Source: Gemmatimonadota bacterium (GTDB lineage Bacteria > Gemmatimonadota > Gemmatimonadetes > Longimicrobiales > Gaopeijiaceae). Taken from it: a stretch of 64,000 nucleotides of DNA. Positions 27,598 through 45,764 of this stretch are shown here, piece by piece. The translations under genes and the position numbers were made by a program. The stretch lies in contig JAXHMG010000003.1 of NCBI GenBank assembly GCA_034521595.1, forward strand, positions 1,056,001-1,120,000, in the 5' to 3' direction. The notes beneath the pieces were generated by a model. It saw only the letters and a list, made by a program, of their open reading frames with translations. It had not been told where the DNA came from and made no database searches. Each line of letters opens with the position of its first letter. Positions within the stretch are counted from its first letter, which is position 1.

Positions 27598-28899
27598 GTG
27601 ACGCTCGGAGGCGGTGTGCGCAGGCTCGGAAGCATCCCGTGGCGTTCGGCGGCGCGGGCCGTGGCGGTGCTCTCGCTCTTCCTTGCAGGGTCGCACGGTT
27701 CGGTTGTCGAGGCTCAGGAGCCCACGCCCGAGCTCCGTGTCTGGCTGATCACCATCGGTCCGGGCACCGCGATCTGGGAGCGGTTCGGCCACAACGCACT
27801 GCGTGTCGTCGACACGCGCACCGGGTACGACGCGTCGTACAACTGGGGCATCTTCGACTTCGAGCAGGAAGATTTCGTTCCGCGGTTCCTGCGTGGACAG
27901 ATGCTCTACATGATGGCTCCGTTCGCTTCCGAGCCGATGTTGGAGATGTACCGCAGCGCCGGGCGAGAGATCGTGGCCCAGGAGCTCGATCTCACCCCGG
28001 AACAGAAGCGGGCGTTGCGAGACTTCGCGGAGCGCAACGCTCTCCCGGAGAATCGGGAGTATCGCTACGACTACTTCCTCGACAACTGCTCGACCCGTGT
28101 GCGGGATCTCCTCGACCGAGTGCTCGGCGGAGCGCTGTTCGAACAATTCGGCGAGGAGCCGACGGGAACGTCCTACCGTTACCACACGCGGCGTCTGACC
28201 CGGCCCGACCCCGTGCTCTTCACCGGGATGGACCTTCTTCTCGGGAGCCCGGGCGACCGGCCCATCACGCGGTGGGCCGAGATGTTCATTCCGATGACGT
28301 TACGCGACGCGGTGCGCGAGGTGCGGATCGATCACGGAGGGGGCGAGCTCCGGCCCCTGGTGAAGGACGAAGAGGTGGTGGTGAAGGCGCGCGTGGCCGA
28401 GGCGCCGGACGAGCCGCCGGCCTGGGGAGCCTGGTACCTGATGCTCGGGCTCTTCCTCGGCGGCGGGCTGGCTCACCTCGGTCGACGGGCCGGGGTTGGC
28501 TCCCGGCGTGGCGCTGCCGCCTTCGGGGTCGTCGGCACGCTGTGGGCGTTCCTCGCCGGCACGGCGGGAACCATCCTCGTGTTGGTGCTGTTCACCGACC
28601 ACGCCTTCATGGCCTGGAACGAGAACCTGTTCTTCCTCAATCCGGTCGCTCTGCTGCTCGTGCCGCTGATTCCGCTGAGCCTCGTTCGCGACCGCGTCCC
28701 CCGCCTGGCGCGCGGCACGGCGCTCTTCCTGGTCGGAGCGTCCGTGCTGGAAGTCGTGCTCTCGGTGACGCCGCTCGGATCACAGCTAAACTGGCTGGAA
28801 GCGATGCTCTTCATCCCGATCCATGTCGGCCTGTGGTGGGGTCTCGAGTCGGTCGGCGCGACGGCCGGTGGCGATGAAGCCAACGCAGATCGACGGTGA
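27598..28899 (+). CDS. DUF4105 / Lnb-like membrane protein
   Basis: FGHNALRV, YNWGIFDF, QELDLT, YRYDYFLDNCSTRVRD, then C-terminal TM helices with WNEN; start uncertain. Confidence 0.8.
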   Translation: MTLGGGVRRLGSIPWRSAARAVAVLSLFLAGSHGSVVEAQEPTPELRVWLITIGPGTAIWERFGHNALRVVDTRTGYDASYNWGIFDFEQEDFVPRFLRGQMLYMMAPFASEPMLEMYRSAGREIVAQELDLTPEQKRALRDFAERNALPENREYRYDYFLDNCSTRVRDLLDRVLGGALFEQFGEEPTGTSYRYHTRRLTRPDPVLFTGMDLLLGSPGDRPITRWAEMFIPMTLRDAVREVRIDHGGGELRPLVKDEEVVVKARVAEAPDEPPAWGAWYLMLGLFLGGGLAHLGRRAGVGSRRGAAAFGVVGTLWAFLAGTAGTILVLVLFTDHAFMAWNENLFFLNPVALLLVPLIPLSLVRDRVPRLARGTALFLVGASVLEVVLSVTPLGSQLNWLEAMLFIPIHVGLWWGLESVGATAGGDEANADRR

Positions 28900-29641
28900 A
28901 GGAATACACGAGGGCGGCGAGGGCCAAGGCCGCCGAGGTGACGGCCAAGACCGTGGGCACGGGCGGGCCGAGCGCCACGAGGAGCGCGACGGTCTGGATG
29001 ACGCAGACGGCCTTGCGACGGACGCTCGGGGGAAGGGGAGCCTCGAGGTGGGGCAGGAGGCGTCCGGCCAGGACGAAGGCGTACCGGATGAGACCGATCC
29101 CGAGCACCCACGGCCCGATCGGGGTGCTCGTCCAAACAAGCGCCGACAAGGCGAGGATCAAGAACGCGTCGAGCTCCATGTCGAAGCGGGCGCCGAATGG
29201 GGTGTGGGTATCGGTGACGCGGGCGAGCCAACCGTCGACCCCGTCCAGAACCGAGGCAGCGGCACCGAGACCGATCACCCACCATGCCGCGGGGCCTTCC
29301 ACCATGCCGGGTACCAGGACCAGCGCGGCGACCGGTAGGGTGAGCGTGGCCCGGAAGAGGGTGACCCGGTTCGCCCATCCGATGCCAGGGCGGGGTAGGT
29401 GGACGGGGAGGAACGCGATCAAGAGGGTCGCGAGCACCCCGTATCCCCCGACCAGGACGACGGAGTACGCCGCCGGCAATCCCAGCGCGCTCCGCGTCAC
29501 GGTCCCGATCCCGAGCAGCGCGGCGAAGGCTACGAGGAGGTCGCCCGCCGCACGCCAGCGGACCGGCGCCCGGTGGGGCGGTGCGGCGGACGCTGTGTCG
29601 CCCTCCGGCGAATCGGTGAGGTTCCGGTGGGGGAGTGTCAA
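28811..29641 (-). CDS. CDP-alcohol phosphatidyltransferase family protein
   Basis: ANRVTLFR, LDGVDGWLAR...FGARFDMELD signature; start uncertain. Confidence 0.9.
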   Translation of the reverse strand: MTLPHRNLTDSPEGDTASAAPPHRAPVRWRAAGDLLVAFAALLGIGTVTRSALGLPAAYSVVLVGGYGVLATLLIAFLPVHLPRPGIGWANRVTLFRATLTLPVAALVLVPGMVEGPAAWWVIGLGAAASVLDGVDGWLARVTDTHTPFGARFDMELDAFLILALSALVWTSTPIGPWVLGIGLIRYAFVLAGRLLPHLEAPLPPSVRRKAVCVIQTVALLVALGPPVPTVLAVTSAALALAALVYSFTVDLRWLHRHRPSRRPTRDPTTGRHGSG

Positions 29642-29673
29642 CGGCGTGTCCGGCGGAAGGAGGTGAGGTCGAG

Positions 29674-30687
29674 ATGAGCGAACCGATACGCACCCGCGCG
29701 TTCTGGGTCCGCGCGCCCGGCCGTGGCGACATCGTGGAAGAGACGGTTCCCCCGCGGGGCGAGGACGAGGTCCTGGTCGAAGCTTCCTACTCGGGAGTCA
29801 GCCGCGGCACCGAAGCGCTGGTCTTTCGGGGCGAAGTGCCCGTCTCACAATACCAGGAAATGCGCGCGCCGTTTCAAGAAGGGGATTTCCCGGGCCCCGT
29901 GAAGTACGGGTACGGCAGCGTGGGCAGGGTGGTGGACACACCGGGCGAGCACGAAAGCCTTCTGGGCCGCTCCGTTTTCTGTCTGTTTCCGCACCAGGAT
30001 CGGTATGTCGTCCCCGTGACGGCGCTCACCCTGCTTCCCGACGGGGTTCCGGAGGGCCGCGGGGTGTTGGCGGCCAACATGGAGACCGCGATCAACGTGG
30101 TGTGGGACGCGGGCCTGAGCGTGGGGGACCGGGTCATCGTGCTCGGCGGCGGCGTGGTCGGCCTGCTCGTCACGTGGCTGGCGGCACGGGTGCCCGGGGT
30201 CGAGCTCCTCCTGGTGGATCCGAATCCGGCGCGTGCGGAGATCGCGAGGGCGTTCGGCGCGCGCTTTACCACGGAGGTGACTCGGGAAGAGCCGGCGGCC
30301 GACGTCGTGATCCACGCCAGCGGCGCGCCGGACGGTCTTCGCACGGCGCTGGGCTCGGCCGGCGTCGAAGCTCGGATCGTCGAGGCGAGCTGGTACGGGT
30401 CCCGAACCGTGCCGCTTCCACTCGGCGAGGCATTCCACTCCCGGCGCCTGACGCTCAGGAGCAGCCAGGTGGGCCGGATCCCACCGGATCGAGCCGCGCG
30501 GTGGACGCACCGCCGGCGCTTGGCGACGGCGGTGGCACTTCTGGACGATCCCGCTTTGGATCTCCTCATCAGCGGGGAGAGCCCGTTCGAGGACCTCCCC
30601 GGAGTGATGGCGACGCTGGCCGCCGAAGGAAGTGGCACACTGTGCCACCGGATCCGGTACCACGACGTGGAGCGCGAGTCGCGATAG
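29674..30687 (+). CDS. Zinc-binding (MDR family) alcohol dehydrogenase
   Basis: SGVSRGTE, PVKYGY, PHQD, GGGVVG Rossmann motif, ASWYG, FHSRRL.LRSSQV; GAGGTG RBS. Confidence 0.88.
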   Translation: MSEPIRTRAFWVRAPGRGDIVEETVPPRGEDEVLVEASYSGVSRGTEALVFRGEVPVSQYQEMRAPFQEGDFPGPVKYGYGSVGRVVDTPGEHESLLGRSVFCLFPHQDRYVVPVTALTLLPDGVPEGRGVLAANMETAINVVWDAGLSVGDRVIVLGGGVVGLLVTWLAARVPGVELLLVDPNPARAEIARAFGARFTTEVTREEPAADVVIHASGAPDGLRTALGSAGVEARIVEASWYGSRTVPLPLGEAFHSRRLTLRSSQVGRIPPDRAARWTHRRRLATAVALLDDPALDLLISGESPFEDLPGVMATLAAEGSGTLCHRIRYHDVERESR

Positions 30688-30727
30688 CCCGGCTCCACCC
30701 CTGATCTCCAACCTGCGAGCAACCCAC

Positions 30728-31126
30728 GTGTACAGTCTCACCGTTCGTGACCACTTCATGATCGCGCACAGCTTCCAGGGAGAGGTGTTCGGTCCCGCCC
30801 AGGGCCTGCACGGCGCCACGTACGTCGTGGACGCCACCTTTCGTCGCCAGGCGCTCGACGCCCACGGGCTGGTCGTGGACATCGGCCGGGCCCGGGACGT
30901 CCTGCGGGAGATCCTGGCCGAGCTCGACTACCGGAATCTCGACGAGATCGAGCGCTTCGAGGGACGGAACACCACGACCGAGTTCCTCGCCCGCGAGGTG
31001 TTCGACCGCATGGCGGACGGGCTCCGTAGCGGTCGGCTCGGGGACGGTGGCAAGGGGGTGGAGCGCGTGTGCGTGACGCTACACGAGTCTCACGTCGCCT
31101 GGGCCAGCTTCGAGGACGCCGTTTGA
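30728..31126 (+). CDS. 6-pyruvoyl-tetrahydropterin synthase/QueD-family homolog (PTPS-IV-like)
   Basis: DHFMIAHSF.GEVFGPAQ.LHGATY, LDYRNLD, NTTTEFLA, LHES; lacks the QueD C.xxHGH motif. Confidence 0.88.
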   Translation: MYSLTVRDHFMIAHSFQGEVFGPAQGLHGATYVVDATFRRQALDAHGLVVDIGRARDVLREILAELDYRNLDEIERFEGRNTTTEFLAREVFDRMADGLRSGRLGDGGKGVERVCVTLHESHVAWASFEDAV

Positions 31127-32235
31127 GCCGGAACGACCTCCACTTCGTCGTACCGGGATCGCTCGATCAGCGGACCGGCGGATATGTCTACGACGCGCGG
31201 ATGATCCGGGGCCTTCGGGATCGCGGGCGTTCGGTCAGGGTGCACGAGCTCGAAGGGGCGTTCCCGGAGGCGGACGGGACGGCACGCAGGAGCCTCGCGG
31301 ACACCCTCGAGAGCGTGCCTTCGGAAAGCGTCGTGATCGTGGATGGGCTGGCCGGAGGCGGGCTTCCGGAGGTGCTCGCCACGCACCGGGAGCGACTGAG
31401 AACCGTGGCGTTGGTCCACCACCCGCTGGCCGACGAAACGGGCTTGCCCGCTTCCGCGGCCGCGCGTCTGCAGGATTCCGAGCGCAGCGCCCTCGCGGCG
31501 TGCCGAGGGGTCGTGGTCACCAGCAGCTTCACCGCGCGACGACTCGAGGAGTACGAGGTGCCCCCGGACCGCATTCGGGTCGCGGTGCCCGGAACCGAGC
31601 CCGGAGCGACGGCGAGCGGTCCGGGAGCGGGCAAGCCCGCGCAGCTCGTGTGCGTGGCGTCGATCACCCCGCGCAAGGGACACCGGACGTTGGTGGACGC
31701 GCTCGCGAGGATTCGGGACTTGGAGTGGAGCTGTGTGTTGGCGGGAAGCGGGCGCCTGGCGCCGGATCATGCTCGAAGAGTCAGAGACCACGTCGAGGAC
31801 AACGGTCTCGCGGGCCGCGTCTCGTTCGTGGGCGAGTTGGGGCCCGAAGCCCTGGATGAGCTCTATCGGCGGAGCACGCTCTTCGTGCTCGCCTCCCACT
31901 ACGAGGGCTACGGCATGGCCCTGACCGAGGCCCTCGCGCGCGGGCTGCCCGTGGTCAGCACGACCGGAGGCGCCATCCCGTTCACCGTACCCGAAGACGC
32001 CGGAGTGCTCGTGCCCCCTGGCGACGCGAGCGCGCTCGGGCGTGCTCTGCGGTCGGTCCTGGCCGAGGATGGCGAGATGCTGCGGCGACTGAAGGCGGGC
32101 GCGATCCGGGCGGCGGGCACGCTCCCGGACTGGGCGCAAGCCGTGGTCGCGTTCGAAGGAGCGGTCGACACGCTCGCGAGGCTCGACCCGGGGTTCCGTC
32201 GTGTCTCCGCCAACTCGGGGTCCAGGACCACGTGA
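31123..32235 (+). CDS. Glycosyltransferase family 4
   Basis: TGGYVYD, VDGLA, LVHHPL, PRKGH, YEGYGMALTEALARGLPV; TTG start overlaps the PTPS stop. Confidence 0.9.
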   Translation: MSRNDLHFVVPGSLDQRTGGYVYDARMIRGLRDRGRSVRVHELEGAFPEADGTARRSLADTLESVPSESVVIVDGLAGGGLPEVLATHRERLRTVALVHHPLADETGLPASAAARLQDSERSALAACRGVVVTSSFTARRLEEYEVPPDRIRVAVPGTEPGATASGPGAGKPAQLVCVASITPRKGHRTLVDALARIRDLEWSCVLAGSGRLAPDHARRVRDHVEDNGLAGRVSFVGELGPEALDELYRRSTLFVLASHYEGYGMALTEALARGLPVVSTTGGAIPFTVPEDAGVLVPPGDASALGRALRSVLAEDGEMLRRLKAGAIRAAGTLPDWAQAVVAFEGAVDTLARLDPGFRRVSANSGSRTT

Positions 32236-33146
32236 GCAGCGAGGATTCGCGGGACGCGGACGACGGGTCGCTACCGGAGGGAAGCGCGTTCGAGGGAAGC
32301 TGGCTCGCGCTGCGAGAGGCAGTGGACCATCGCTCTCGCGCTCCTGAGCTGCTCCCGCCGCTCGTCCACACCTGGCGGCAGAGGGGGTGGTCCCGGATCG
32401 TGGACCTCGGATCCGGTGCGGGCTCCAACGTCCGTTATCTCGCGCCTCGGCTTCCTTCACCTCAGAGCTGGGTGCTCGTAGACCACGATCCGGACCTTCT
32501 CGAGGATGCGGCGCTGCCCCCTGAAGCGAGCGGTGCGGAGCGCGTGCGGGGAGATCTGGCGGACGAGGGCATCCGGGCGTTGCGCGATGTCGATTTCGTG
32601 ACCGGCGCGGCGTTGTTGGACCTCGTGTCCGAAGCGTGGCTTCGTCGGGTGGTGCAAGCTTGTGCGGAACGTGAGTGCGGCGCGCTGTTCACCACGATCT
32701 ACGACGGCACCATCGCATGGGCGCCCACGTCCGCGCAGGGTCGCGATGCGTCCACCCGTCCCGACGCGAATCGCGACCGCGCGGACGATGCGTTCATTCG
32801 CGGCCTGATCAACGCCCACCAGACCCGTGACAAAGGACTGGGGCCCGCTCTCGGGCCTCGCGCGGCCCTGGAGGCCCATGACCTCTTCGAAGCGGCCGGA
32901 TACCGTACGTGGCTCGTTCCGAGCCCGTGGCACCTCGGCGTGGAAGACCAGGAACTCGCCATGGCGTTGCTCGACGGATGGGCGGGGGCGGCCCTCGAGG
33001 AGCGTCCTGCGGCCGGCCACCGCACCCGACGCTGGGTGGAGCGAAGTCGCGCGCGCATCCGCGAAGGGCGTTGGGTACTCACCGTCGGGCACCTCGATGT
33101 CCTCGCTCTCCCGGGGTCGGCGTCTCCCACGACGAGCGGGATATGA
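32232..33146 (+). CDS. Class I SAM-dependent methyltransferase-like protein
   Basis: WLALREAVD, VDLGSGAGSN, LVDHD, ALLDLVS, NAHQ. Confidence 0.8.
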   Translation: MSSEDSRDADDGSLPEGSAFEGSWLALREAVDHRSRAPELLPPLVHTWRQRGWSRIVDLGSGAGSNVRYLAPRLPSPQSWVLVDHDPDLLEDAALPPEASGAERVRGDLADEGIRALRDVDFVTGAALLDLVSEAWLRRVVQACAERECGALFTTIYDGTIAWAPTSAQGRDASTRPDANRDRADDAFIRGLINAHQTRDKGLGPALGPRAALEAHDLFEAAGYRTWLVPSPWHLGVEDQELAMALLDGWAGAALEERPAAGHRTRRWVERSRARIREGRWVLTVGHLDVLALPGSASPTTSGI

Positions 33147-34108
33147 CCGGATGGTTGCGGATGCTGGCGGGCCCTGTCTTGCTGGCGGCCCTGGGCTACC
33201 TGGTCGACCTCGAGGCCATCGTCGCCCGCCTACGGACGCTGGAGCCCGGATGGGTCGTCGCAGCCGTCGCCCTGGGAGTCGTGCAGACGGTGGTGTCGGC
33301 CTGGCGCTGGCGATACACGGGAGCTCGTCTGGGAATCGACCTTCCGTTCCGCACGGCGCTCACGGAATACTACCTGGCGATATTCCTCAATCAGGTGCTC
33401 CCCGGCGGTGTGCTCGGTGACGCGAATCGGGCGTGGCGGCATGCGGGACGATCTCGAAGCGGGAACAGCTCGGCCGGCCCCGCCGTCCGGTCCGTGATCC
33501 TGGAGCGAGCCGCCGGCCAGCTCGTCATCTTCCTGCTGGCGTTCCTGTCAGCCGGCATCGTGGCCGCGCGGGTGAATCGACTGGGCCTTTGGGTCGGCAC
33601 GATAGCCGTGGGGCTCGTGGCCTTCGCCGTGGGAGCTCGGATGCTCGAGTGGAGCAGGCGAGCCACGTCCCCCCTGGGGCAGCTCGCCCGTGACGCTCGC
33701 ACGGCCGTGTTCTCTCGTGAAGCGTGGGGGGTTCAGCTCGGCACCTCGGCCCTCATCGTCATCTCCTACGTGTTGACCTACGTCTGCGCCGCGTGGGCGG
33801 TGGGCATCGACACTCCGTTCGCCGTGCTGGCACCGCTGGTCCCTCCCGTCCTGCTGGCGATGCTTCTCCCCCTGTCGGTCGCGGGGTGGGGCGTGCGCGA
33901 GGCGGCCGCCGCGAGTCTGTGGGGCGTCGTGGGGCTGAGCGTGGCGGACGGTGTGGCCATCTCGGTGGTGTATGGCCTCCTCGTCCTCGTCGGGACGGCC
34001 CCGGGAGCCGCGGTGCTCGCGCTGGGCGGGCGTTACGCCGCGCCGCGCGAGCCCGACACGCGCCGGAGATCCAGGTCGAAGAGCACGTCGTCGCCGAGCG
34101 TGAAGTGA
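33143..34108 (+). CDS. Lysylphosphatidylglycerol synthase TM-domain (flippase-like) protein
   Basis: SAWRW, FLNQVLPGGVLGDA, VILER, LPLSVAGWGVRE; about 8 TMs. Confidence 0.85.
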   Translation: MTGWLRMLAGPVLLAALGYLVDLEAIVARLRTLEPGWVVAAVALGVVQTVVSAWRWRYTGARLGIDLPFRTALTEYYLAIFLNQVLPGGVLGDANRAWRHAGRSRSGNSSAGPAVRSVILERAAGQLVIFLLAFLSAGIVAARVNRLGLWVGTIAVGLVAFAVGARMLEWSRRATSPLGQLARDARTAVFSREAWGVQLGTSALIVISYVLTYVCAAWAVGIDTPFAVLAPLVPPVLLAMLLPLSVAGWGVREAAAASLWGVVGLSVADGVAISVVYGLLVLVGTAPGAAVLALGGRYAAPREPDTRRRSRSKSTSSPSVK

Positions 34109-34908
34109 CGGCAGGCCGGACGGAGCGCGTCGGCCAGGGTGGCGACGGGCGCCAACGAGAGGCTCGGCCGACCCGACCCGATCACCATCGGGGCCACGGT
34201 CACGTGTAGCCGGTCGAGCGCTCGGGCGGCGAGGAAGTGGGAAACCGTGACGCCGCCCCCTTCCACTAGCACGCGCCGGCACCCGCGTGCCTCGAGCATC
34301 TCGAGGAGCCAGGAAGGAGCGATGACGCCCGGGTCCGGCTCTCGGGGAGCCATGATCTCGACGTGATCCGGCGTGGGACTTTCAGGCACGCCGTGTCGGA
34401 CCCACAGGGTCGGAGCCGCTCCGTCGCGGAACAGGTGTCCGCTCGGCTCGACGCGGCCGGCCGGGTCGAGCACGACGCGCAGTGGGTTCTCGCCGGGCGC
34501 CCGACGGGTCGTCAACCTCGGATCGTCGGACACGGCCGTGCCCGCGCCCACCACGACGGCATCCACGAGCGCTCGGAGGCGATGCAGCCTCTCGATATCC
34601 CCCGGCCCCGTGACATAGTGCGAATCCCCGGACTCGGTGGCGATCCGACCGTCGAGGCTCTGGCCGACCTGACCGACCACGATCCCCGGAGCCGCCGCGA
34701 TGGGGGCGAACAGGTCCAAGAGGTGGGTCGCCTCGGGGTCGGATGGCGCGGACGTCGTCCATGCTCCGGTGGGCTCCACCGTCAACGACGCGCCGTCGAC
34801 GGTCACTGTAGTGGCCTGACCGGAGCTTTCGGCGGAGACGGATGCGACCGCGTTCGCCGCGGCGCGCAAGAGGTCCCAAGCGCCCGTGGCGGTGATCCGC
34901 ACGCTCAT
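34033..34908 (-). CDS. RibD C-terminal (reductase-only) family protein
   Basis: QSLDGRIAT, DAVVVGAGT...DDPRLT, RVVLDP, LVEGGG, APMVIGSG; no deaminase Zn motif. Confidence 0.9.
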   Translation of the reverse strand: MSVRITATGAWDLLRAAANAVASVSAESSGQATTVTVDGASLTVEPTGAWTTSAPSDPEATHLLDLFAPIAAAPGIVVGQVGQSLDGRIATESGDSHYVTGPGDIERLHRLRALVDAVVVGAGTAVSDDPRLTTRRAPGENPLRVVLDPAGRVEPSGHLFRDGAAPTLWVRHGVPESPTPDHVEIMAPREPDPGVIAPSWLLEMLEARGCRRVLVEGGGVTVSHFLAARALDRLHVTVAPMVIGSGRPSLSLAPVATLADALRPACRHFTLGDDVLFDLDLRRVSGSRGAA

Positions 34909-35723
34909 GGAGCGTCCTCCAAGCGATCCACCGGGAACGCCCAGGTTTCCCGGACGATCGTCGCGAGGACCGCGGCATAGTGCTCGACCAGCTCGGCACC
35001 GATCGCCTCCGTCGCCAGGCGGGCGTCACCCGTCACCCCGTGCGGGTTCAGGTCTCCCGCCAGCCACGAGAAGGGAGCCACGCCCTCCGGGCTCACCCAC
35101 CGCAAGGTGCTCGCCAACTCCTCTCCGAGCGTGGAGAACCGGGCGATGTGCTCGGCCCGGACGAGGTCGGGACGGAGGTGCAGGAGCATGGAGGTCTCGA
35201 CGGCCCCGCCGTGTAGCCCGTGCACCCATTCCTCGTCGGGAAGCTCCGTCGAGGTCGGACGGGGGAAGCGGAACGAATGGGCCTTCACCACCAGGAGGCC
35301 GTGCTCCGTCCGAAGGCGCAGACCCACGTCGTCGACGACGTGGGCGTTCCCGCCGTGCGTGTTGAAGAGAACCAGCCTGCGGAATCCCTGGCGGGCCAGT
35401 GCCGCTCCTTGCTGTAGGAGGATCTCCGCGAGCGTGTCCGCGGCGAGGGACAGGGTGCCGGCGAACCGGTCGTGCTCGAGGCTGGCGCCGCTCGAGAGCT
35501 CGGGCAGCAGCACGACCGGTACGTCGTCGGGAACGGCTTCGAGCGCTCGGCTGGCGAGTCCACGGGCGATGACGAGGTCGGTGGAGACCGGTAGGTGCGG
35601 CCCGTGCTGCTCGATCGCTCCAAGCGGGAGCACCGCGACCGGGTCCCGTGCCGCCAGAGCGGACAGCTCCGGGGCGCTCTGCTCTTCCCACCGCCACGTG
35701 GAGGGGGTCGGCTCGTCGGGCAT
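34905..35723 (-). CDS. Creatininase family amidohydrolase
   Basis: LPLGAIEQHGPHLP..TD, SLEH..FAGT, NTHGGN, HGGAVETS. Confidence 0.92.
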   Translation of the reverse strand: MPDEPTPSTWRWEEQSAPELSALAARDPVAVLPLGAIEQHGPHLPVSTDLVIARGLASRALEAVPDDVPVVLLPELSSGASLEHDRFAGTLSLAADTLAEILLQQGAALARQGFRRLVLFNTHGGNAHVVDDVGLRLRTEHGLLVVKAHSFRFPRPTSTELPDEEWVHGLHGGAVETSMLLHLRPDLVRAEHIARFSTLGEELASTLRWVSPEGVAPFSWLAGDLNPHGVTGDARLATEAIGAELVEHYAAVLATIVRETWAFPVDRLEDAP

Positions 35724-36496
35724 CAGCGCTCCTCTGAAGGGAAGGGGGCTTCGTGCGTCCCTGTATCGATTTTTGCGTAGACGTCTCCGAAGGCTAGGCC
35801 GTCCGCTCCGGCGTCGAGCCAGGCGCGCAGCTCCACCGCTCCCAGCCAGGGTCGAAAGCGGAACCGTCGCTCCTCACGGGCGACCGCGTTGAACCGGTAC
35901 GGTCCCAGCGCGTCCAGGTGATCCACACAGGCACGGGCGATGTCCAGCCCCCCCTGAACGAACTCGAAGGAAATCCCGGCGATCGGGTGGGTGAGTCCGG
36001 CCAACGCCTCCGCTTCGTGCCCTTCGATGTCCAGCTTGCAAAAGGTCGGAAGGCCGAAGCGGGCCACTAGGGCGTCGAGAGTGGTCAGGGGGACCGCCAC
36101 TTCGTCCTCCCACCGCACGCCGTCGAAACCCAGGTTGCGCTCCATCATCCTCCTCCGCCAGCCGGATGAGAGCGTGGAGACCGTCGGCGTGCGTCGGCTC
36201 ACGGCCAGCGAAGCGGTCCCCACCTCCGCACCTACCGCTTCTTCGAGCACGACGACTCCCTTCTTTCGGCCGGCGATGCGGCGGAGCCACCGTGCGACAC
36301 CGGGTTGCGGCTCGAGAGCGACCACCCGCGCGCCGAGGGAGGCGAAGGCCACCGTCCGATCCCCCAAGTGCGCGCCGACGTCGAAAACCAGGCTTCCGGG
36401 CTCCACGAACGGCGCGTAGAGGGAGCGCAGGCCCCGTTGGCGTCCGGGCCGCCAGTAGACCGCGAACGAGCGCAGCAGCCCGAGGAGCTCATCCAC
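35723..36496 (-). CDS. FkbM family methyltransferase
   Basis: FDVGAHLG, ALEPQP, TLDAL, KLDIEGHE; GTG 36496 overlaps the upstream stop. Confidence 0.88.
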   Translation of the reverse strand: MDELLGLLRSFAVYWRPGRQRGLRSLYAPFVEPGSLVFDVGAHLGDRTVAFASLGARVVALEPQPGVARWLRRIAGRKKGVVVLEEAVGAEVGTASLAVSRRTPTVSTLSSGWRRRMMERNLGFDGVRWEDEVAVPLTTLDALVARFGLPTFCKLDIEGHEAEALAGLTHPIAGISFEFVQGGLDIARACVDHLDALGPYRFNAVAREERRFRFRPWLGAVELRAWLDAGADGLAFGDVYAKIDTGTHEAPFPSEER

Positions 36497-38195
36497 CGGT
36501 GCCCGCCGCACGGCTCGACCGCTCCTCGCTGAATGCCCGGATGAACCAGGTGCGGAACCGGTCCATCCCTTTCGGCTCTCCGTCCACATCCGGGAACGGT
36601 CCGGTCTCGAAGCCCCACTGCAGGAAAGGATCGAGAAGCTCTCGCGCACCGGTGATCACGTGGACGGGAACGGTTCTCGGCGCGTCCTCTCCGGTGATGA
36701 GCGGGGCGGGTTGATGGTCTCCGAGAAGGATCAGCAGCGCGTCCGAGCCGATGAAGCGCTCCGCGTAGCTGGCCGCCGTATGGACGGCATAGTCGATGGA
36801 CAACGCATAGTGCTCACGAACCCGTTCGGTGTCGCGCCAGAGCTCTTCAGGACGCTCTCCGGCCTCCCGCCACTCCTCGAACACGGACCCGTCACCGATC
36901 TCGTTCCAGGCCTCGAGAACCGGTAGGATGGGAGTCCACGGCGCGTGGCTGCTGATCAGACCGATCTCCGCGAAGAGCGGCCGTTCTTCAGGGGTCGCGC
37001 GGCGGACGGAGCGCTCGACGAAGGACCAAGTGTACTGATCCGGCATCGTCACCCAGTTCAGTGGCGGGCCTCGGTAGCCCATATCCTCGAAGGTGTAGAT
37101 GGCGTCGTATCCGAACTGGAACCCTTCGGGCCAGGCGAGGGTGATCGCGGGCATGACCGCGGCCGTCCTGTATCCGGCGGCTTCGAAGTCATCGATGAGG
37201 GTCGGGCGTGTGCTGGCCAGGAGGAGATCGTACCGCATCTGATTGTGGAGCCAGAGGCCGCTGAGCATCGAACCATGCCCCAACCAGGACTGTCCGCCCT
37301 GGCTCGGTGCGACCAGTCGTCCGGTCGCGAGGTGGAGGCCCGCGGCCTCGAGGCGCGATCCCATCTCCTTCAAACGGGGGCGGATCGTCGGAGCGTAGCG
37401 CGGATCTTCCAGCGCGGTCATGCCGTACGACTCGACGAACGCGAGAAGCACGTCCCGTCCCCCCAGCCGTCCGAGGAGTCCGGGCGTGCCGGAGAGATCG
37501 GCGGGACGTGCCGCGAGCTCGGCCGCGAACGCGTCGCGCTCTTCCAGGAGGCCTGCGGCGAAGCGTGCCTGCTCGGCGGCGAGACGGGCCCCCGGGAAGC
37601 CGAGAGCCCGGCTCCACCCCTCGTCCGCCCGCATGCCGACGAGGATGCCGGACGCCACGAGGACCGTGAGGCCCATGCTCCGGTAGGACCTCAGGACGGG
37701 ACGCACCCGGCGCGGGGGCGCCAGAAGGTGTCCGAGGAGGGCCACGACCGCCAATGGCAGGAGGATCGCGGCCGTGCGAACGACCGTGGCCATCGCCGGG
37801 CCCATGGTGCCCGTCAGTAGGTCGGACACGGCGCTGAGCAGGCGGATATCCAAGTAGATGTTGAGCGGGCGCGAAAGGCTCATGCGGGCGGACGCATCTC
37901 CGAGTCCGACCAATCCCATGGCCACGACGATCAAAGCCGCGAGGAGCGCCAGGGCCACGGACCACGGCCGCCGCGGCAGGGCCGCGAAGACGAGCGTGAG
38001 AACGACGGCTTCCCCGGCCACCCAGTGGAAGGGGACCATCCCCGGAGCGGCCCATTGGGGCGCCAGGAGGATCCCATTGACAAGGACGAAGGCCAGGATG
38101 AGGCTCAACCACCTTCCGGGGGCCGTTGAGGGCCACGACGCGAGCGCCTTTGCGACCGAGCGCATCCCGGTGTCGGTTGCCGGATCGGATGTCAT
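36489..38195 (-). CDS. Membrane-anchored sulfatase-like / LTA-synthase-like (alkaline phosphatase superfamily) transferase
   Basis: About 5 N-terminal TMs then VESYG, GQSWLGH, SSHAPW, GDHQP metal-site motifs. Confidence 0.8.
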   Translation of the reverse strand: MTSDPATDTGMRSVAKALASWPSTAPGRWLSLILAFVLVNGILLAPQWAAPGMVPFHWVAGEAVVLTLVFAALPRRPWSVALALLAALIVVAMGLVGLGDASARMSLSRPLNIYLDIRLLSAVSDLLTGTMGPAMATVVRTAAILLPLAVVALLGHLLAPPRRVRPVLRSYRSMGLTVLVASGILVGMRADEGWSRALGFPGARLAAEQARFAAGLLEERDAFAAELAARPADLSGTPGLLGRLGGRDVLLAFVESYGMTALEDPRYAPTIRPRLKEMGSRLEAAGLHLATGRLVAPSQGGQSWLGHGSMLSGLWLHNQMRYDLLLASTRPTLIDDFEAAGYRTAAVMPAITLAWPEGFQFGYDAIYTFEDMGYRGPPLNWVTMPDQYTWSFVERSVRRATPEERPLFAEIGLISSHAPWTPILPVLEAWNEIGDGSVFEEWREAGERPEELWRDTERVREHYALSIDYAVHTAASYAERFIGSDALLILLGDHQPAPLITGEDAPRTVPVHVITGARELLDPFLQWGFETGPFPDVDGEPKGMDRFRTWFIRAFSEERSSRAAGTGG

Positions 38196-38231
38196 GTTCG
38201 GATGTGCCGGTCCACGGAGCTGAAGGGAATC

Positions 38232-39869
38232 ATGTCATTTCGCCTGCTTGCCGCTTTCCTCGCGCTCGTGCTGCTCGTCTGGTGGTTCACGACCGGTCCC
38301 ACTCTACCGTCACTGGTACCCGGAACCAACCCGGGCGAGCACACGCCCCCACCGGACACCGCGAGCCCGGCCGAGACGGTCTGGCAACCGCGCCCCGAAA
38401 CGTTGACCGAGGATCTGGCGCGCCACGCCCGTGCCCTCTCCGAAAGGGCGTACGTGGCACCGTCCTGGAACGTTCCGGACAGGCTCGCGGAGTTGGACTT
38501 CGACGGGTACCGCTCCATCCGCTTCCGGCCCGCCGCTTCCGTCTGGCGTGACGAAGGCATGTTCGAAGTTCAACTCTTCCACCTCGGCGGTGCCTACGAC
38601 ACACCCGTGTCCATCCACTTCGTCGAAGGTGACTCCATACGGGAGCAACGCTACGATCCCGCGCTCTTCTCGTTCGAGGGAGCCGCGTCGGAGGTCGGTG
38701 ACCTGCCGAGCGGCTCGGTCCCGGCGTTCGCCGGGTTCCGCGTTCACTACCCGCTCAACGCGCCCGAACGGAGCGACGAGGTCGCGGCGTTCCTCGGCGC
38801 CTCGTACTTCCGGATCCTCGGCGCGGGACACCAATACGGGCTCTCCGCGCGCGGCCTGGCCATCGATCCCGCCACGGACGGGCCCGAGGAGTTCCCGGAT
38901 TTCAAGGCGTTCTGGATCACGCGGCCCGAGGACGGATCCCGAACCTTGACGGTCCACGCTCTCCTCGACGGGCCGTCGGTCGTGGGGGCCTATCGGTTCG
39001 AGCTTCGGCCCGGTGCCTCGACGGAGCTCATGGTCGACGCTCACCTGTTCGGGAGGCGCGACGTCTCCAAGCTCGGCGTGGCTCCCTTGAGTAGCATGTT
39101 CCTGCACGCGCCCGGGCACGGTCCCCGGCACGACGACTTCCGCCCCCGTGTGCACGATTCCGACGGCCTGCAGATGCTCACGGGCCGCGGGGAGTGGATC
39201 TGGAGGCCACTTTCGAACGGGCCCGGTTTCCACGTGACGTCCCTCCGGGACGAAGATCCGTCGGGGTTCGGCCTGTTCCAGCGCGCGCGGGACTTCGAGG
39301 ACTACTTGGATCTGGAAGCCCGGTACGACCGCCGTCCGAGCTACTGGGTGGAAGTGATCGATGGGGACTGGGGCACCGGAGGGGTGGAGCTCATGGAGAT
39401 CCCCACGCCCTCCGAGTTCAACGACAACATCGCTGCCTACTGGGTGCCGGACCGACCGCTCGCCGCGGGCGAGGAGCGTAGGTACGCGTATCGGTTGAGC
39501 ACCCATGACGCTCGTCCGCCGGAGCTCGATCTCGCGCACGTGGAGCGCACGGCGGTGGGACGGGACGCCCTGCCGGGGGAAGGCGAGCCTTCCCCTCCGG
39601 GCCACCGGCGTTTCGTGGTGGATTTCGTGGGCGGTGTCCTCACGGACCTCGGGGAGGAGGACGATGTACGACCGGATCTCTCGCTGCTCAGGGGGAGCGC
39701 GGAGGGGGTCACGGTACAGCCCTTGCCGGGTAACACGGGGCGGCGGGTGACCTTCACCTTGATCCCCGACGGCGACGAGCCGGCGGACATGCGTCTGCGT
39801 CTGCTCCTCGATGACCGCTCGGTGAGCGAGACTTGGAGCTATGTTTGGTATCCTCGAGACATGAACTGA
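38232..39869 (+). CDS. mdoG: Periplasmic glucan biosynthesis protein OpgG/OpgD family
   Basis: YRSIRFRP, FAGFRVH, FLGASYFR, YGLSARGLAID, EEFPDF, DFRPRVHDSDGL, DNIAAYW, SETWSY. Confidence 0.92.
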   Translation: MSFRLLAAFLALVLLVWWFTTGPTLPSLVPGTNPGEHTPPPDTASPAETVWQPRPETLTEDLARHARALSERAYVAPSWNVPDRLAELDFDGYRSIRFRPAASVWRDEGMFEVQLFHLGGAYDTPVSIHFVEGDSIREQRYDPALFSFEGAASEVGDLPSGSVPAFAGFRVHYPLNAPERSDEVAAFLGASYFRILGAGHQYGLSARGLAIDPATDGPEEFPDFKAFWITRPEDGSRTLTVHALLDGPSVVGAYRFELRPGASTELMVDAHLFGRRDVSKLGVAPLSSMFLHAPGHGPRHDDFRPRVHDSDGLQMLTGRGEWIWRPLSNGPGFHVTSLRDEDPSGFGLFQRARDFEDYLDLEARYDRRPSYWVEVIDGDWGTGGVELMEIPTPSEFNDNIAAYWVPDRPLAAGEERRYAYRLSTHDARPPELDLAHVERTAVGRDALPGEGEPSPPGHRRFVVDFVGGVLTDLGEEDDVRPDLSLLRGSAEGVTVQPLPGNTGRRVTFTLIPDGDEPADMRLRLLLDDRSVSETWSYVWYPRDMN

Positions 39870-39871
39870 GC

Positions 39872-42808
39872 TTGAGCGCACCCTCCCAGACCACACCACC
39901 TCCAGTCTCGAGCGCATCGATCTTCGATGCGCCGGGCCTCGGGCTCCGTCGCACCCTCTTCGCCTTTCTCGTCGCCGGAACGACCGTCTACGGCGTATCC
40001 ATGATGGCGAGCATCGTGGGCGCGGGCGGAACCACGCTGCTCGAGGTGGCGATCCTGGTCCTTTTCGCGCCGACGTTCGGCTGGATCTCCATTGCCTTCT
40101 GGAACGCGATCCTGGGGTTCGTCCTCCAGGCGTGGAATCGGGACCCGCTTACGCTACGGCCGATGGGATCGCGGGCGCGTACCCTCGCCGATGTGCCGAT
40201 CACCACGCGCACCGCGCTGGTCGTTCCCAGCCGGAACGAGGACGTGAGCGCCGTGGTCGAGCGGATCCGCTGGATGTTGGATTCGCTGGAGGAAACGGGC
40301 ATGGCGGGTGTGTTCGACGTGCACCTTTTGAGCGATGCCGACGACCCCGGATTGATCGACGTCGAGGAGCGGGAGTGGAGCGAGCTCCGGGAAGAGTACG
40401 GTGGCTCATCCGGCCTTCACTATCGACGTCGCTCGTCGAACCAAGGGCGCAAGGCGGGCAACATCGCCGAGTTCTGCGAGCGATGCGGGGACGACTACGC
40501 GTATTTCGTGGTCTTGGACGCGGACTCCGTGATGCGGGGGGATACGCTCGTCCACCTCGTCCGGGGCATGGAAGCGGATCCGAGCGTGGGCCTCCTCCAG
40601 ACGGTCCCGCTTCCTCGGCGCCAGGAAACCCGCTTCGGCCGATTCGTGGAGTTCGCGTCGACCCTCTACGGCCCGATGCTGGCCACCGGACAGAGCTTCT
40701 GGCAGGGGGACGCAGCGAATTACTGGGGGCACAACGCGATCGTGCGCATGGATCCGTTTCGGCGGCACGGTCGTCTGCCCGTCCTTCCCGGGTCGCCCCC
40801 GCTCGGTGGTGAGATCCTCTCCCACGACTTCGTGGAAGCCGCGCTCCTGCGTCGTGCCGGCTGGAGCGCGTACCTCCTCCCGGACGTGAAGGGAAGCTGG
40901 GAGGACGTGCCGAGCAACCTGCTCGACTTCGCGCGCCGTGACCGCCGTTGGGCTCAGGGGAGCCTCCAACACCTCAGGCTGATGGGCCTCGCGGGCCTCC
41001 ATCCCCTCAGCCGCCTCCACTTCTTGCTGGGGGCCATGGGTTACGTGTCCTCGTTGCTCTGGCTCCTCCTTCTCCTCGCCAGCACGATCTACGTGGCGGA
41101 GTGGCAGGGAATCGGGGGCATCGTGGTCCTCGATAGCCCCACGCCGGGTCCGGGGGCGGCGGGCCGACCGGTCCCCTCGCTTCTCGGGATTACCGCAGGA
41201 CTCTTGTTCATTCCGAAGATGTTGGGAGTCGGTCTCGCCTTCCGGGACCGGATCCCGTTCGCCAACAGAGGAAGGTTGGCCGTTCGTGCCTCGTCGGAAG
41301 CCGCGTTCGCCGTCCTGGTGGCGCCGATCATGATGCTCGTCCACGCTTGGTGTGTCACCAGCATCGTGGCTGGGCGGTCCGTGGCCTGGGGGAGCCAGCT
41401 GCGGGACGGTCGGATCGTTTCCTGGTCCGAAGCGACCCGGCGGGTCGGCTGGGTGACCGCGGTGGGGGTGGCCTGGGGCGCCTACACGCTTTTCCTGAGC
41501 CCGTTGTTCTTCGCCTGGCTTTCCCCGATCTTCGCCGGGTTGCTGGTCGCCGTGCCGACGGTACGATGGACCTCGGACCCTCGGCACGGCGTTGTTGCTT
41601 CCGGTCGTGACGACGGCCGGCGCTCACGATCCGGTCCGCCCGGAGCCGCCGATGGGCAGGAAGGTGCCGTGAACAATATGCACGAAGCCGAGCGGAGTCT
41701 CTTCGAGCTGAGGCGGCACAGAGCGGTTTACGTCGAGAGCGCGCAGGGTCCCGACGGCACCGCGGGCGTCGATCTCCTCGTCGCGTCGGCGGAAGGGATC
41801 GACGATGGAGTTCTGGCGATGCTTCGCGAATATAGTGCGGGCCCGCTTCACCTTCTCATCACGCCGTACCGCGCTCGCGCGATGGGGATCGAGGCAGGAT
41901 CCGCTCCGTTGGCACTCGAGCTACCCCAGCGCATGGGGCCGTCCGAAATCCTCCGCCTGAGCAGCACACCGCGGCCGATGCCGTCGGTCAAGCTCGCCTC
42001 ACGCCCGCTGACCGACGCCGAGGAGGTCAGCCTCTCCTTGGCACGGTTGGGGCACCTGCTACCTGCCGTGGTGAGCGCCACCGTGCCACCCGACGTACCC
42101 ACCGGTCTCGGGCAGCGGCTGGCCTCCGGGCAGGTATTGCGAGCGCACGCGAGTCGCATACGAGCGGCCTTCGCCACGCCGCGGCTCTCGGTCACGCGAG
42201 TGAGCGCGGCGGCGGTGCCCCTGCAAGACACCGAAGACGCGGAATTCATCCTGTTTCGGGAGGAACACGGCTTCCTGGAGCACGTCGCCATCCTGATCGG
42301 CTCCCGGGAGCGATGGCCGGATCCTCTTCCGGTGCGGCTCCATTCCGCGTGCCTCACGGGCGATCTCTTCGGAAGCTTGAAATGCGACTGCGGTGAGCAG
42401 CTCCACGGAAGCCTACGCCATTTTCGGGAGCGAGGCGGGGGTGTGTTGCTGTACCTGCAACAGGAGGGCCGGGGCATCGGGCTGGGGAACAAGCTCCGGG
42501 CGTACGCTCTCCAGGAAGGTGGGCTCGATACCGTGGACGCGGATTGCGCCCTCGGATTCGGGCCGGACGAGCGGAGCTACGACGCGGCCGTCGATATGCT
42601 GAGGCACCTCGGGATCGAGCGTGTCCAACTGCTCACGAACAACCCGGAAAAGCTGAGAGCACTCGAGAGCGCGGGAGTGAAGGTGCTCGACCGAATGCCC
42701 CTCCACGGAACGTTGAATCGCCACAATCTCCCCTACGTGAAAGCGAAAGTGCAACGTGCGGGCCACTGGCTCGGCGACATGTTGTCGGAGGCTTCCGAGC
42801 GACCGTGA
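39872..42808 (+). CDS. mdoH: OpgH (glucan glucosyltransferase) fused in frame to GTP cyclohydrolase II
   Basis: OpgH motifs RKAGNI, LDADS, YWGHNAI, LSHDFVEA, RDRRWAQG in the first ~580 aa; no stop before the RibA motifs. Confidence 0.85.
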   Translation: MSAPSQTTPPPVSSASIFDAPGLGLRRTLFAFLVAGTTVYGVSMMASIVGAGGTTLLEVAILVLFAPTFGWISIAFWNAILGFVLQAWNRDPLTLRPMGSRARTLADVPITTRTALVVPSRNEDVSAVVERIRWMLDSLEETGMAGVFDVHLLSDADDPGLIDVEEREWSELREEYGGSSGLHYRRRSSNQGRKAGNIAEFCERCGDDYAYFVVLDADSVMRGDTLVHLVRGMEADPSVGLLQTVPLPRRQETRFGRFVEFASTLYGPMLATGQSFWQGDAANYWGHNAIVRMDPFRRHGRLPVLPGSPPLGGEILSHDFVEAALLRRAGWSAYLLPDVKGSWEDVPSNLLDFARRDRRWAQGSLQHLRLMGLAGLHPLSRLHFLLGAMGYVSSLLWLLLLLASTIYVAEWQGIGGIVVLDSPTPGPGAAGRPVPSLLGITAGLLFIPKMLGVGLAFRDRIPFANRGRLAVRASSEAAFAVLVAPIMMLVHAWCVTSIVAGRSVAWGSQLRDGRIVSWSEATRRVGWVTAVGVAWGAYTLFLSPLFFAWLSPIFAGLLVAVPTVRWTSDPRHGVVASGRDDGRRSRSGPPGAADGQEGAVNNMHEAERSLFELRRHRAVYVESAQGPDGTAGVDLLVASAEGIDDGVLAMLREYSAGPLHLLITPYRARAMGIEAGSAPLALELPQRMGPSEILRLSSTPRPMPSVKLASRPLTDAEEVSLSLARLGHLLPAVVSATVPPDVPTGLGQRLASGQVLRAHASRIRAAFATPRLSVTRVSAAAVPLQDTEDAEFILFREEHGFLEHVAILIGSRERWPDPLPVRLHSACLTGDLFGSLKCDCGEQLHGSLRHFRERGGGVLLYLQQEGRGIGLGNKLRAYALQEGGLDTVDADCALGFGPDERSYDAAVDMLRHLGIERVQLLTNNPEKLRALESAGVKVLDRMPLHGTLNRHNLPYVKAKVQRAGHWLGDMLSEASERP
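41669..42808 (+). CDS. ribA: GTP cyclohydrolase II moiety (possible internal start)
   Basis: VRLHSACLTGDLFGSLKCDCG, QEGRGIGL.NKLRAY, LLTNNP.K; AGGAAGG upstream of in-frame GTG 41669 / ATG 41678; N-terminal degenerate RibB-like region. Confidence 0.8.
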   Translation: MNNMHEAERSLFELRRHRAVYVESAQGPDGTAGVDLLVASAEGIDDGVLAMLREYSAGPLHLLITPYRARAMGIEAGSAPLALELPQRMGPSEILRLSSTPRPMPSVKLASRPLTDAEEVSLSLARLGHLLPAVVSATVPPDVPTGLGQRLASGQVLRAHASRIRAAFATPRLSVTRVSAAAVPLQDTEDAEFILFREEHGFLEHVAILIGSRERWPDPLPVRLHSACLTGDLFGSLKCDCGEQLHGSLRHFRERGGGVLLYLQQEGRGIGLGNKLRAYALQEGGLDTVDADCALGFGPDERSYDAAVDMLRHLGIERVQLLTNNPEKLRALESAGVKVLDRMPLHGTLNRHNLPYVKAKVQRAGHWLGDMLSEASERP

Positions 42809-43380: not shown

Positions 43381-43403
43381 CCGCCCGTGCTGGAGGATGC
43401 TCG

Positions 43404-43619
43404 ATGCCACCCAGCCGCTATGTTTCCGCGGATCGTCTCCTGCGCATGCTGGCGTACATCGCCGTGGCCGTGGTCGTGTTGGTGGCGGCCGATGCGGTGT
43501 TCCGTGTCTTCGGGTCGCCCCAGGCGGTGCGTCGCACCTTCGCGGTGATCTGGATCGTGGCCCTCCCGTTGGGAGGATGGTGGCTCTGGCGGCGCACGGC
43601 CCGCGATTCCGGCCATTGA
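43404..43619 (+). CDS. Small two-TM membrane protein
   Basis: GGAGG RBS, ATG 43404, two hydrophobic helices. Confidence 0.55.
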   Translation: MPPSRYVSADRLLRMLAYIAVAVVVLVAADAVFRVFGSPQAVRRTFAVIWIVALPLGGWWLWRRTARDSGH

Positions 43620-43709: not shown

Positions 43710-43745
43710 GATGTCAGTCGGTGGAACTCTCAGGACCCACGAGCC

Positions 43746-45671: not shown

Positions 45672-45764
45672 CCGAGGGCGGTCCCCGGAGCTCCCGGAGA
45701 ACGACGGAGCGTGCCGTTGACCGGGATGAGCGCATCGCCCATCTTCTCCGAGGAGAAAATCAGC

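Follow-up and report, generated by a model that had tools for sequence, protein, structure and literature searches.

A PTPS-IV gene cluster joined to opgGH in a Gemmatimonadota genome and its possible connection to periplasmic glucan

Canonical PTPS and QueD enzymes hold zinc with three histidine residues and carry a catalytic cysteine in the motif CxxxHGH or CxxxxxHGH; a TTE stretch in PTPS binds the 2-amino-4-oxo ring. Within COG0720, the PTPS-IV subfamily is marked by the signature FGPAQ, and the excerpted text of one paper records PF00925 and PF01872 proteins as its genomic neighbors (PMC5445326); an excerpt of another says only that PTPS-IV takes part in F420 synthesis, citing unpublished work (PMC5041015). 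The crystal structure of SCO6650 (PDB accession number 3d7j) is known without a function, and we found no paper in the open literature that assigns one to the SCO6650-type cluster, which is present in hundreds of species. Here, we describe such a cluster in a Gemmatimonadota bacterium (assembly GCA_034521595.1, contig JAXHMG010000003.1, positions 1,056,001 to 1,120,000; this stretch of 64,000 nucleotides is referred to as the window, and positions are counted from its first letter). The cluster, at 28811-42808, holds the only opgG and opgH genes of the genome, which belong to the synthesis of osmoregulated periplasmic glucan (OPG), and its OpgH is fused to a GTP cyclohydrolase II (GCH II). Our preferred reading, to which we give a probability of roughly 0.4, is that the region is one functional unit in which the orphan PTPS-IV pathway has merged with opgGH, so that a GTP-derived lipid head group would be passed to periplasmic glucan.

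The PTPS homologue of the window aligns over residues 29 to 163 with 3d7j, which is entered as "uncharacterized protein SCO6650" (E = 2.4e-49), and its translation contains the FGPAQ motif. Judged by its sequence, it is the orthologue of SCO6650 and a member of the PTPS-IV subfamily of COG0720, which agrees with the assignment made in the original prediction, an earlier annotation of the same DNA. The canonical PTPS/QueD features are missing: the motif region reads FGPAQGLHGA and is not preceded by a cysteine, and in an alignment to PH0634 an alanine occupies the position of the third metal-binding histidine, while the TTE ring-binding motif is retained. The score against the QueD model is 48.5 bits, compared with a cut-off of 89.25.

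With the PTPS protein as query, species-representative genomes yielded at least 581 confirmed relatives. From these, the 80 best loci were taken for tblastn searches with the window proteins, and all counts per locus given here refer to these. Homologues were found for the GT4 glycosyltransferase in 80 loci, the MDR-superfamily dehydrogenase in 79, the class I methyltransferase in 75, the CDP-alcohol phosphatidyltransferase in 68, the RibD_C-type reductase in 63, the flippase-like protein in 44, GCH II in 42, the creatininase-family protein in 36, the LtaS-like protein in 35, the FkbM-family methyltransferase in 33, and OpgG and OpgH in 13 each; the recurrence of RibD_C (PF01872) and GCH II (PF00925) matches the neighborhood recorded for PTPS-IV. 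The genes keep nearly the same order and strands, with the methyltransferase at a constant position, across loci from Gemmatimonadota, Acidobacteriota, Gamma-, Beta-, and Alphaproteobacteria, and Actinomycetota (groups assigned manually). The database proteins closest to those of the window carry the names Gemmatimonadota or Longimicrobiales. The cluster is one copy of a widespread orphan pathway of the PTPS-IV/SCO6650 type, which is conserved and uncharacterized. A Streptomyces locus (L053) shares the gene order of the window, whereas the GCH II of the window keeps a catalytic tyrosine that is Met, Leu, or His in three actinomycete loci and bears a RibB-like N-terminal domain, and the window cluster adds the creatininase-family protein, FkbM, the LtaS-like transferase, and opgGH. 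One genome of the same family as the organism studied here (G009) has two complete copies of the cluster on different contigs (L092 on C5 and L093 on C15), neither with opgGH. One locus from the Vicinamibacterales has an IS200-like transposase (L007:13402-13830) within the cluster, where it separates the flippase-like gene from RibD_C, and an integrase-type transposase (L007:6245-7639) just upstream.

The link to OPG is most direct in the OpgH fusion. OpgH and the GTP_cyclohydro2 domain share one 991-codon frame on the plus strand (39833-42808), in which the likely start of OpgH is TTG at 39872; the database copy of the fusion has 978 amino acids. The OpgH part exceeds the NF003958 cut-off and contains the GT2 domains PF13632 and PF00535, and the upstream gene product is a member of the OpgG family and its single match in the genome. 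The same fusion occurs at full length, with 58 to 65% identity, in five other genomes (G002 to G005 and G013), and also in G287; in G017, OpgH and GCH II lie in one open frame of 1,074 amino acids, and the copies in G006 and G008 are cut by contig ends. The two parts are adjacent with stops between them in G001 and on different contigs in G012. Among the listed matches to the GCH II part that have the length of the fusion, 100 of 120 protein clusters carry PF00925 together with a GT2 domain. In the same matches, GCH II is fused to a CDP-alcohol phosphatidyltransferase in five clusters, in which the tyrosine is kept, and to RibD_C in two. Furthermore, an 805-amino-acid open reading frame (ORF) at L072:13017-15434 combines CDP-OH_P_transf and Sulfatase domains. 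These fusions link GCH II, RibD_C, the CDP-alcohol phosphatidyltransferase, the LtaS-like protein, and OpgH, and therefore point to one pathway at the membrane. Two further clusters among the listed matches (P0228 and P0231) fuse GCH II, with its RibB-like N-terminal domain, to GCH I (PF01227) and thus hold both GTP ring-opening enzymes in one chain.

The original prediction would have been refuted had opgGH been adjacent to the cluster only in this genome, and this is not the case. The two genes stand beside the cluster in 13 of the 80 loci, from two phyla; when only the 54 loci that extend 8 to 9 kb or more to either side are counted, the figure is 11 (Gemmatimonadota, 3 of 7; Gammaproteobacteria, 8 of 17). 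Together with the recurrent fusion, these cases remove that objection. Four arrangements are seen. The LtaS-like gene is divergent from opgG-opgH in the window, L029, and L073; opgG-opgH lies immediately upstream of the dehydrogenase and PTPS genes on the same strand in L008 and L028; opgG-opgH-fkbM-creatininase forms one strand in L013 and in loci of Halomonas, Vreelandella, and Wenzhouxiangella (L021, L033, and L052); and in Marinobacter opgGH lies approximately 3 kb past RibD_C.

Co-occurrence points in the same direction. Among 41 relatives, in which G025 enters only as a double negative, PTPS-IV (E < 1e-50) is present in 13 and OpgH in 11, all of which are within the 13. In a sample of 301 genomes of the phylum that are at least 85% complete, PTPS-IV was found in 6 and OpgG in 4, each time with the two genes 7 to 9 kb apart on one contig, and OpgG was found in none of the 295 sample genomes without PTPS-IV. 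Among the Halomonadaceae, 121 genomes were compared: PTPS-IV occurs in 72 and OpgG in 88, the latter in every genome with PTPS-IV versus 16 of the 49 without it. The distance between the two genes is 7 to 11.5 kb in 27 of the 72 and 23 to 50 kb in 12 (12 OpgG matches are missing from the listing on which these distances are based). Many Halomonadaceae genomes have two or three OpgG-family genes; that of Halomonas ventosae (G326, locus L033) has two paralogues within 17 kb of the cluster (C5:34222-35661 and C5:41528-42961) and a third on another contig.

The module attached to OpgH is RibBA-like, with a diverged RibB-like domain at approximately residues 600 to 790 followed by GCH II at residues 792 to 956 (NF001591, 218.9 bits; cut-off, 148). 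In alignment with Escherichia coli RibA (2bz0), GCH II keeps the three zinc-binding cysteines and the catalytic tyrosine, which we take to be Tyr105 in E. coli numbering, and belongs to the RibA family. The tyrosine is kept in 39 of the 42 loci with GCH II, and Met, Leu, or His replaces it only in the actinomycete loci L040, L053, and L081. In the FAPy-forming variant of GCH II (SCO6655 type), the catalytic tyrosine is replaced by methionine; the window enzyme is predicted to be catalytically intact and of the ordinary tyrosine type. The original prediction had invoked a creatininase-like FAPy deformylase. The creatininase-family protein of the window belongs to the wider family (PF02633) and scores only 19.4 bits against the ArfB model (NF033501; cut-off, 180), and its best NCBIfam hit, MftE, is also under the cut-off (126.5 versus 172 bits). 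Because GCH II retains the tyrosine here and in most loci, the FAPy-deformylase idea does not apply, and a route through a methionine-variant GCH II and an ArfB-like deformylase was rejected for this organism. The RibB-like domain has no Pfam hit; its fold resembles that of DHBP synthase (TM-score of 0.71 to 0.73, structure Atlas), which we treat as a lead only. Structural neighbors of this domain include phage (Uroviricota) protein clusters in which a DHBP-synthase domain is fused to a nucleotidyltransferase domain.

In the early riboflavin route of archaea and fungi, GCH II or III is followed by a reductase that acts before deamination. The cluster resembles this order in pairing GCH II with a deaminase-less RibD_C protein, for which the best PDB hit is 6p8c, a 2,5-diamino-6-ribosylamino-4(3H)-pyrimidinone 5'-phosphate reductase (E = 1.6e-29). 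It differs from that route in its creatininase-family protein, which is not ArfB-like, and in the content of the window, where deaminase, lumazine synthase, and riboflavin synthase are absent; the sole genomic matches to PF00885 and PF00677, and all five to PF00383, fall outside the window, as the original prediction had noted for the window itself. A complete operon of the bacterial type, ribH-ribBA-ribE-ribD, is present in the genome (3.49 Mb in 3 contigs; completeness, 93%) at C3:1430355-1433729, approximately 310 kb from the window, and folE is located elsewhere. The GCH II and RibD_C of the cluster are thus second copies and not the sole source of ribA and ribD functions. Since the operon is complete, plain riboflavin synthesis is ruled out as the role of the cluster, and the earlier view of these genes as a coherent unit with another purpose gains support.

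The 568-residue membrane protein encoded next to opgG had been labeled as sulfatase- or LtaS-like. Sequence comparison did not bear out the label: no Pfam match was found at E ≤ 0.001, no NCBIfam match, and no PDB sequence match at E ≤ 1, and the Pfam Sulfatase model gave 17.8 bits (cut-off, 25; E = 0.0022). The protein is nevertheless the only PF00884 match of the genome, itself below the cut-off, and is present in a single copy. It has thousands of homologues (3,500 of the scored candidates at E ≤ 0.001), and some reach the Sulfatase model. The fold, on the other hand, supports the label. An AF2 model built from 32 sequences (pLDDT = 79) shows helices within residues 5 to 190 and an α/β domain at residues 245 to 556. 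The top Foldseek hits are LtaP (E = 6e-9), LtaS, full-length MCR-1 and EptA, and GacH, and VIA Z-scores are 21.1 for LtaS, 20.6 for GacH, 20.0 for EptC, 19.5 for BcsG, 18.9 to 19.1 for full-length EptA and MCR-1, and 17.6 to 18.6 for ordinary sulfatases. The domain layout is that of the LtaS/EptA/OpgB/BcsG class, i.e., N-terminal membrane helices and a C-terminal alkaline-phosphatase fold, and the model supports well the assignment as a membrane-anchored phospho-alcohol transferase of the LtaS/GacH/EptA/BcsG type. Glu255, Ser303, His417, Asp493, and His494 are invariant in the 32 homologues; they may correspond to the metal site (Glu and Asp-His) and the Thr/Ser nucleophile of the LtaS class.

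In E. coli, OpgB (a phosphoglycerol transferase) and OpgE substitute OPG with phospholipid head groups, and BcsG transfers phosphoethanolamine onto cellulose. The window resembles these systems in encoding a membrane-anchored transferase with an alkaline-phosphatase fold beside glucan synthase genes. Their donors, however, are bulk phospholipids (phosphatidylglycerol and phosphatidylethanolamine), whereas the window cluster has its own CDP-alcohol phosphatidyltransferase, flippase-like protein, and GTP-derived pathway, and its transferase is too diverged to reach the Pfam Sulfatase cut-off.

On the lipid side, the motif D-G-x2-D-G-x2-A-R...G-x3-D-x3-D is intact in the CDP-alcohol phosphatidyltransferase, which is a member of its family. 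Its best NCBIfam hits are weak (PgsA, archaetidylinositol-phosphate synthase, and PIP synthase) and all far under the cut-offs. PgsA and the (archaetidyl)inositol-phosphate synthases act on a polyol phosphate together with a CDP-activated lipid, and in the synthesis of phosphatidylinositol mannosides the GT4 enzyme PimA acts after a CDP-alcohol phosphatidyltransferase. The cluster likewise pairs such a transferase with a GT4 protein, for which no NCBIfam equivalog reaches its cut-off. Unlike phosphatidylinositol mannoside synthesis, the cluster has no inositol-phosphate synthase, and a ribityl-aminopyrimidine phosphate would be the only polyol phosphate whose source it encodes. Compared by sequence with the PDB, the MDR protein comes nearest to sorbitol dehydrogenase, ketose reductase, and arabinitol dehydrogenase (E = 1e-7 to 5e-5), and also to butanediol dehydrogenase. 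It had been called a zinc dehydrogenase; the dehydrogenase family stands, and the catalytic zinc site is apparently missing, since only the cofactor domain was matched (no ADH_N match, and ADH_zinc_N below the cut-off) and the Cys and His-Glu ligands, sought by eye, were not seen.

A scheme can be drawn from the gene identities, synteny, fusions, and co-occurrence described above, with its chemistry read from family membership. At the cytoplasmic face, the OpgH-tethered GCH II, a recognized enzyme type whose activity is presumed, would open GTP to 2,5-diamino-6-ribosylamino-4(3H)-pyrimidinone 5'-phosphate, and the deaminase-less RibD_C protein would reduce this to the ribityl form with the 2-amino group retained. 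The ribityl-aminopyrimidine may then be remodeled by the polyol-type dehydrogenase of the MDR superfamily and by PTPS-IV, which has no metal site, for instance, by oxidation at C2' and subsequent closure to a dihydropterin-like ring. GT4 would attach a sugar, and the two methyltransferases would methylate the product. The CDP-alcohol phosphatidyltransferase could place the polyol-phosphate head group on a lipid in the manner of PgsA or PIP synthase, with CDP-diacylglycerol; the flippase-like protein would turn the lipid to the outer leaflet; and the LtaS/GacH/BcsG-like transferase would hand the phospho-head group to the periplasmic β-glucan made by OpgGH, as OpgB, OpgE, and BcsG do with theirs. 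In lineages without OPG, the head group might go to another envelope acceptor or remain on the lipid. A wider generalization, which we consider doubtful, is that several phyla make a phospholipid with a ribityl-aminopyrimidine or pterin-glycoside head group derived from GTP, which in diderms would serve as a donor for periplasmic β-glucans. A protective role against UV, redox, or desiccation stress would be pure speculation.

The product might instead be a special lipid or glycolipid that bears a GTP-derived head group and stays in the membrane, with opgGH co-transcribed through a shared envelope or osmotic-stress regulon and OpgH merely anchoring GCH II. Genomes in which a search for OpgH or OpgG found nothing do have the full core of CDP-alcohol phosphatidyltransferase, flippase-like protein, and GT4; another fusion partner of GCH II is the CDP-alcohol phosphatidyltransferase itself, so that membrane tethering and not OPG may be what the fusions share; and gammaproteobacterial opgGH loci mostly do without the LtaS-like transferase. 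We nevertheless regard this as unlikely, given that a LtaS/EptA/BcsG-type enzyme accompanies the cluster in 35 of 80 loci and is fused once to the CDP-alcohol phosphatidyltransferase; to our knowledge, all described relatives of this enzyme move head groups off lipids. Moreover, the restriction of OpgG to the vicinity of the cluster in the phylum sample (4 of 4) exceeds the usual effect of shared regulation. If the head group does leave the lipid, its acceptor could be another envelope polymer (lipid A or the lipopolysaccharide core, peptidoglycan, or another glycan), reached by an EptA- or GacH-like reaction, with OPG a mere neighbor. In fold, the transferase resembles EptA/MCR-1/EptC and GacH no less closely than LtaS (Z = 19 to 21), and its gene is commonest in Acidobacteriota (12 of 16 loci) and Burkholderiales (6 of 6), with no adjacent opgGH. 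The divergent pairing of the transferase gene with opgG in the present genome, G250, and G287 and the fusion of the first enzyme of the pathway to OpgH both speak for OPG, and we hold another acceptor polymer to be improbable.

Neither lipid nor polymer would be involved if the product were a soluble pterin- or pyrimidine-glycoside acting as a cofactor, signal, or sunscreen, comparable to the pteridine glycosides of cyanobacteria, and the lipid-type genes unrelated neighbors. A PTPS-family protein beside GT4 and methyltransferases, the TTE motif retained in PTPS-IV, and the proteins that join GCH II to GCH I (P0228 and P0231) would suit such a product. The membrane genes fit it poorly: the CDP-alcohol phosphatidyltransferase occupies a fixed position in 68 of 80 loci and, in five protein clusters among the listed matches, shares one chain with GCH II, and the flippase-like and LtaS-like membrane proteins accompany the cluster in 44 and 35 loci, respectively, which makes a soluble glycoside quite improbable. 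Least credible to us is that the OpgH-borne GCH II is a regulatory GTP sensor or that the second ribA and ribD copies back up riboflavin synthesis. The families are those of riboflavin enzymes, and OpgH, which carries the domain, is a synthase with an activity that varies with the physiological state of the cell; however, the catalytic cysteine triad and tyrosine are conserved (the tyrosine in nearly all loci with GCH II), the later riboflavin enzymes are encoded in neither the cluster nor the window and their full operon stands elsewhere, and in other lineages this GCH II has RibD_C or the CDP-alcohol phosphatidyltransferase as its fusion partner.

Several observations weigh against the transfer of a GTP-derived head group to OPG. 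In loci with full flanks, opgGH adjacency is absent from Acidobacteriota (0 of 12), Burkholderiales (0 of 5), and Actinomycetota (0 of 11). OpgH was not found at E ≤ 1e-5 in five cluster-bearing genomes, namely, G009, G010, and G147, which are of the same family as the organism studied here, one Vicinamibacterales genome, and one Streptomyces genome, nor was OpgG found in the last two; OPG therefore cannot be the universal target. In G009 and G147, a stand-alone GCH II gene is divergent from the LtaS-like gene, at the place where the window has opgG-opgH-GCH II, a correspondence that we also count in favor of the link to OPG. Among 72 flanking ORFs of 10 opgGH-less loci, called by a crude GC3-based procedure in 10 of 12 chosen loci (L038 and L025 were left out), none matched a glucan synthase family in Pfam. 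The LtaS-like gene is rare (3 of 29) in gammaproteobacterial loci, where opgGH adjacency is commonest, and in 33 of the 72 Halomonadaceae genomes with both families the nearest listed OpgG gene is farther off than 50 kb or on another contig. The co-occurrence counts also overstate independence because the genomes are related. Within the scheme itself, the cluster has neither a cytidylyltransferase nor a head-group phosphatase, the creatininase-family enzyme fits no step because a tyrosine-type GCH II already removes formate, and the reactions given to PTPS-IV and the MDR protein are guesses, because the former has no metal site and the latter no apparent zinc ligands.

The window is the best available pointer to the destination of the pathway product, and the OpgH-GCH II fusion and OpgG co-occurrence in two phyla direct attention to the OPG fraction and membrane lipids of Halomonas, Chromohalobacter, and Marinobacter. 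In the open literature, we found no functional study that connects periplasmic glucan with GCH II. If the proposed transfer is true, it would provide the first nucleobase-derived lipid head group and the first such OPG substituent, the enzyme that opens the pathway would be physically docked on the glucan synthase, and "second" riboflavin-type genes, which annotation pipelines mislabel as riboflavin biosynthesis, would gain a role in the cell envelope.

The coordinates of the cluster genes are given in Table 1. The G+C content of the window is 64 to 71%, and the many spurious ORFs that result do not hide the genes: Pfam and NCBIfam single out twelve tightly packed genes, the same number and extent as proposed originally. 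They form three strings, i.e., ZnDH-PTPS-GT4-MT-flippase, LtaS-like-FkbM-creatininase-RibD_C, and OpgG-OpgH/RibA, within each of which stop/start overlaps of 1 to 4 bases are present or can be placed. Because the genes for the CDP-alcohol phosphatidyltransferase and the MDR dehydrogenase diverge from overlapping starts, the start of the former is uncertain. The flippase-like ORF opens at 32909, and its likely start, ATG at 33143, overlaps the methyltransferase stop; the FkbM ORF is open to 36649, with a likely start at GTG 36511 or 36496.

Table 1. Features of the cluster in the window, with the profile match behind each assignment (scores in bits).
Feature	Coordinates	Strand	Match	Remark
CDP-alcohol phosphatidyltransferase (CDP-OH_P_transf)	28811-29641	minus	PF01066, 58.7 (cut-off 22)	membrane protein
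MDR-superfamily dehydrogenase	29635-30687	plus	ADH_zinc_N, 27.2 (under cut-off 31.8)	polyol-dehydrogenase-like
PTPS-IV T-fold protein	30632-31126	plus	PF01242, 91.2	likely start GTG at 30728
GT4 glycosyltransferase	31069-32235	plus	PF00534, 104.5	
Class I SAM methyltransferase (Methyltransf_25)	32232-33146	plus	PF13649, 24.2 (cut-off 27)	weak match
Flippase-like membrane protein (LPG_synthase_TM)	33143-34108	plus	PF03706, 138.4	
RibD_C-type pyrimidine reductase	34033-34908	minus	PF01872, 131.2	no deaminase domain
Creatininase-family amidohydrolase	34905-35723	minus	PF02633, 217.9	
FkbM-family methyltransferase	35723-36511	minus	TIGR01444, 80.3 (cut-off 37.7)	
LtaS-like membrane protein	36489-38195	minus		568 aa; identified by fold
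OpgG (MdoG), periplasmic glucan protein	38202-39869	plus	PF04349, 574.2	profile positions 4-478 of 478
OpgH (MdoH) part of fusion	39833-41650	plus	NF003958, 668.8 (cut-off 419)	residues 35-588
RibBA-like module	41651-42808	plus	PF00925, 177.7	C-terminal on OpgH

The gene after the cluster (43263-45806, minus strand) is an 847-amino-acid ORF with no Pfam or NCBIfam match and a homologue in none of the 80 loci. On the other side, a gene for a Lnb-like lipoprotein N-acyltransferase (27598-28899, plus strand; Lnb_N and 5TMH_Lnb; NF051878, 203.6 bits, under the cut-off of 550) converges on the CDP-alcohol phosphatidyltransferase gene and overlaps its 3' end; in L028, a copy with 40% identity is located 6 kb away from the cluster, and none was found in the other 79 loci. 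It is preceded by a 745-amino-acid ORF (25311-27548, plus strand) that unites 2-oxoacid dehydrogenase E1 alpha (E1_dh) and E1 beta (Transket_pyr and Transketolase_C) in one chain.

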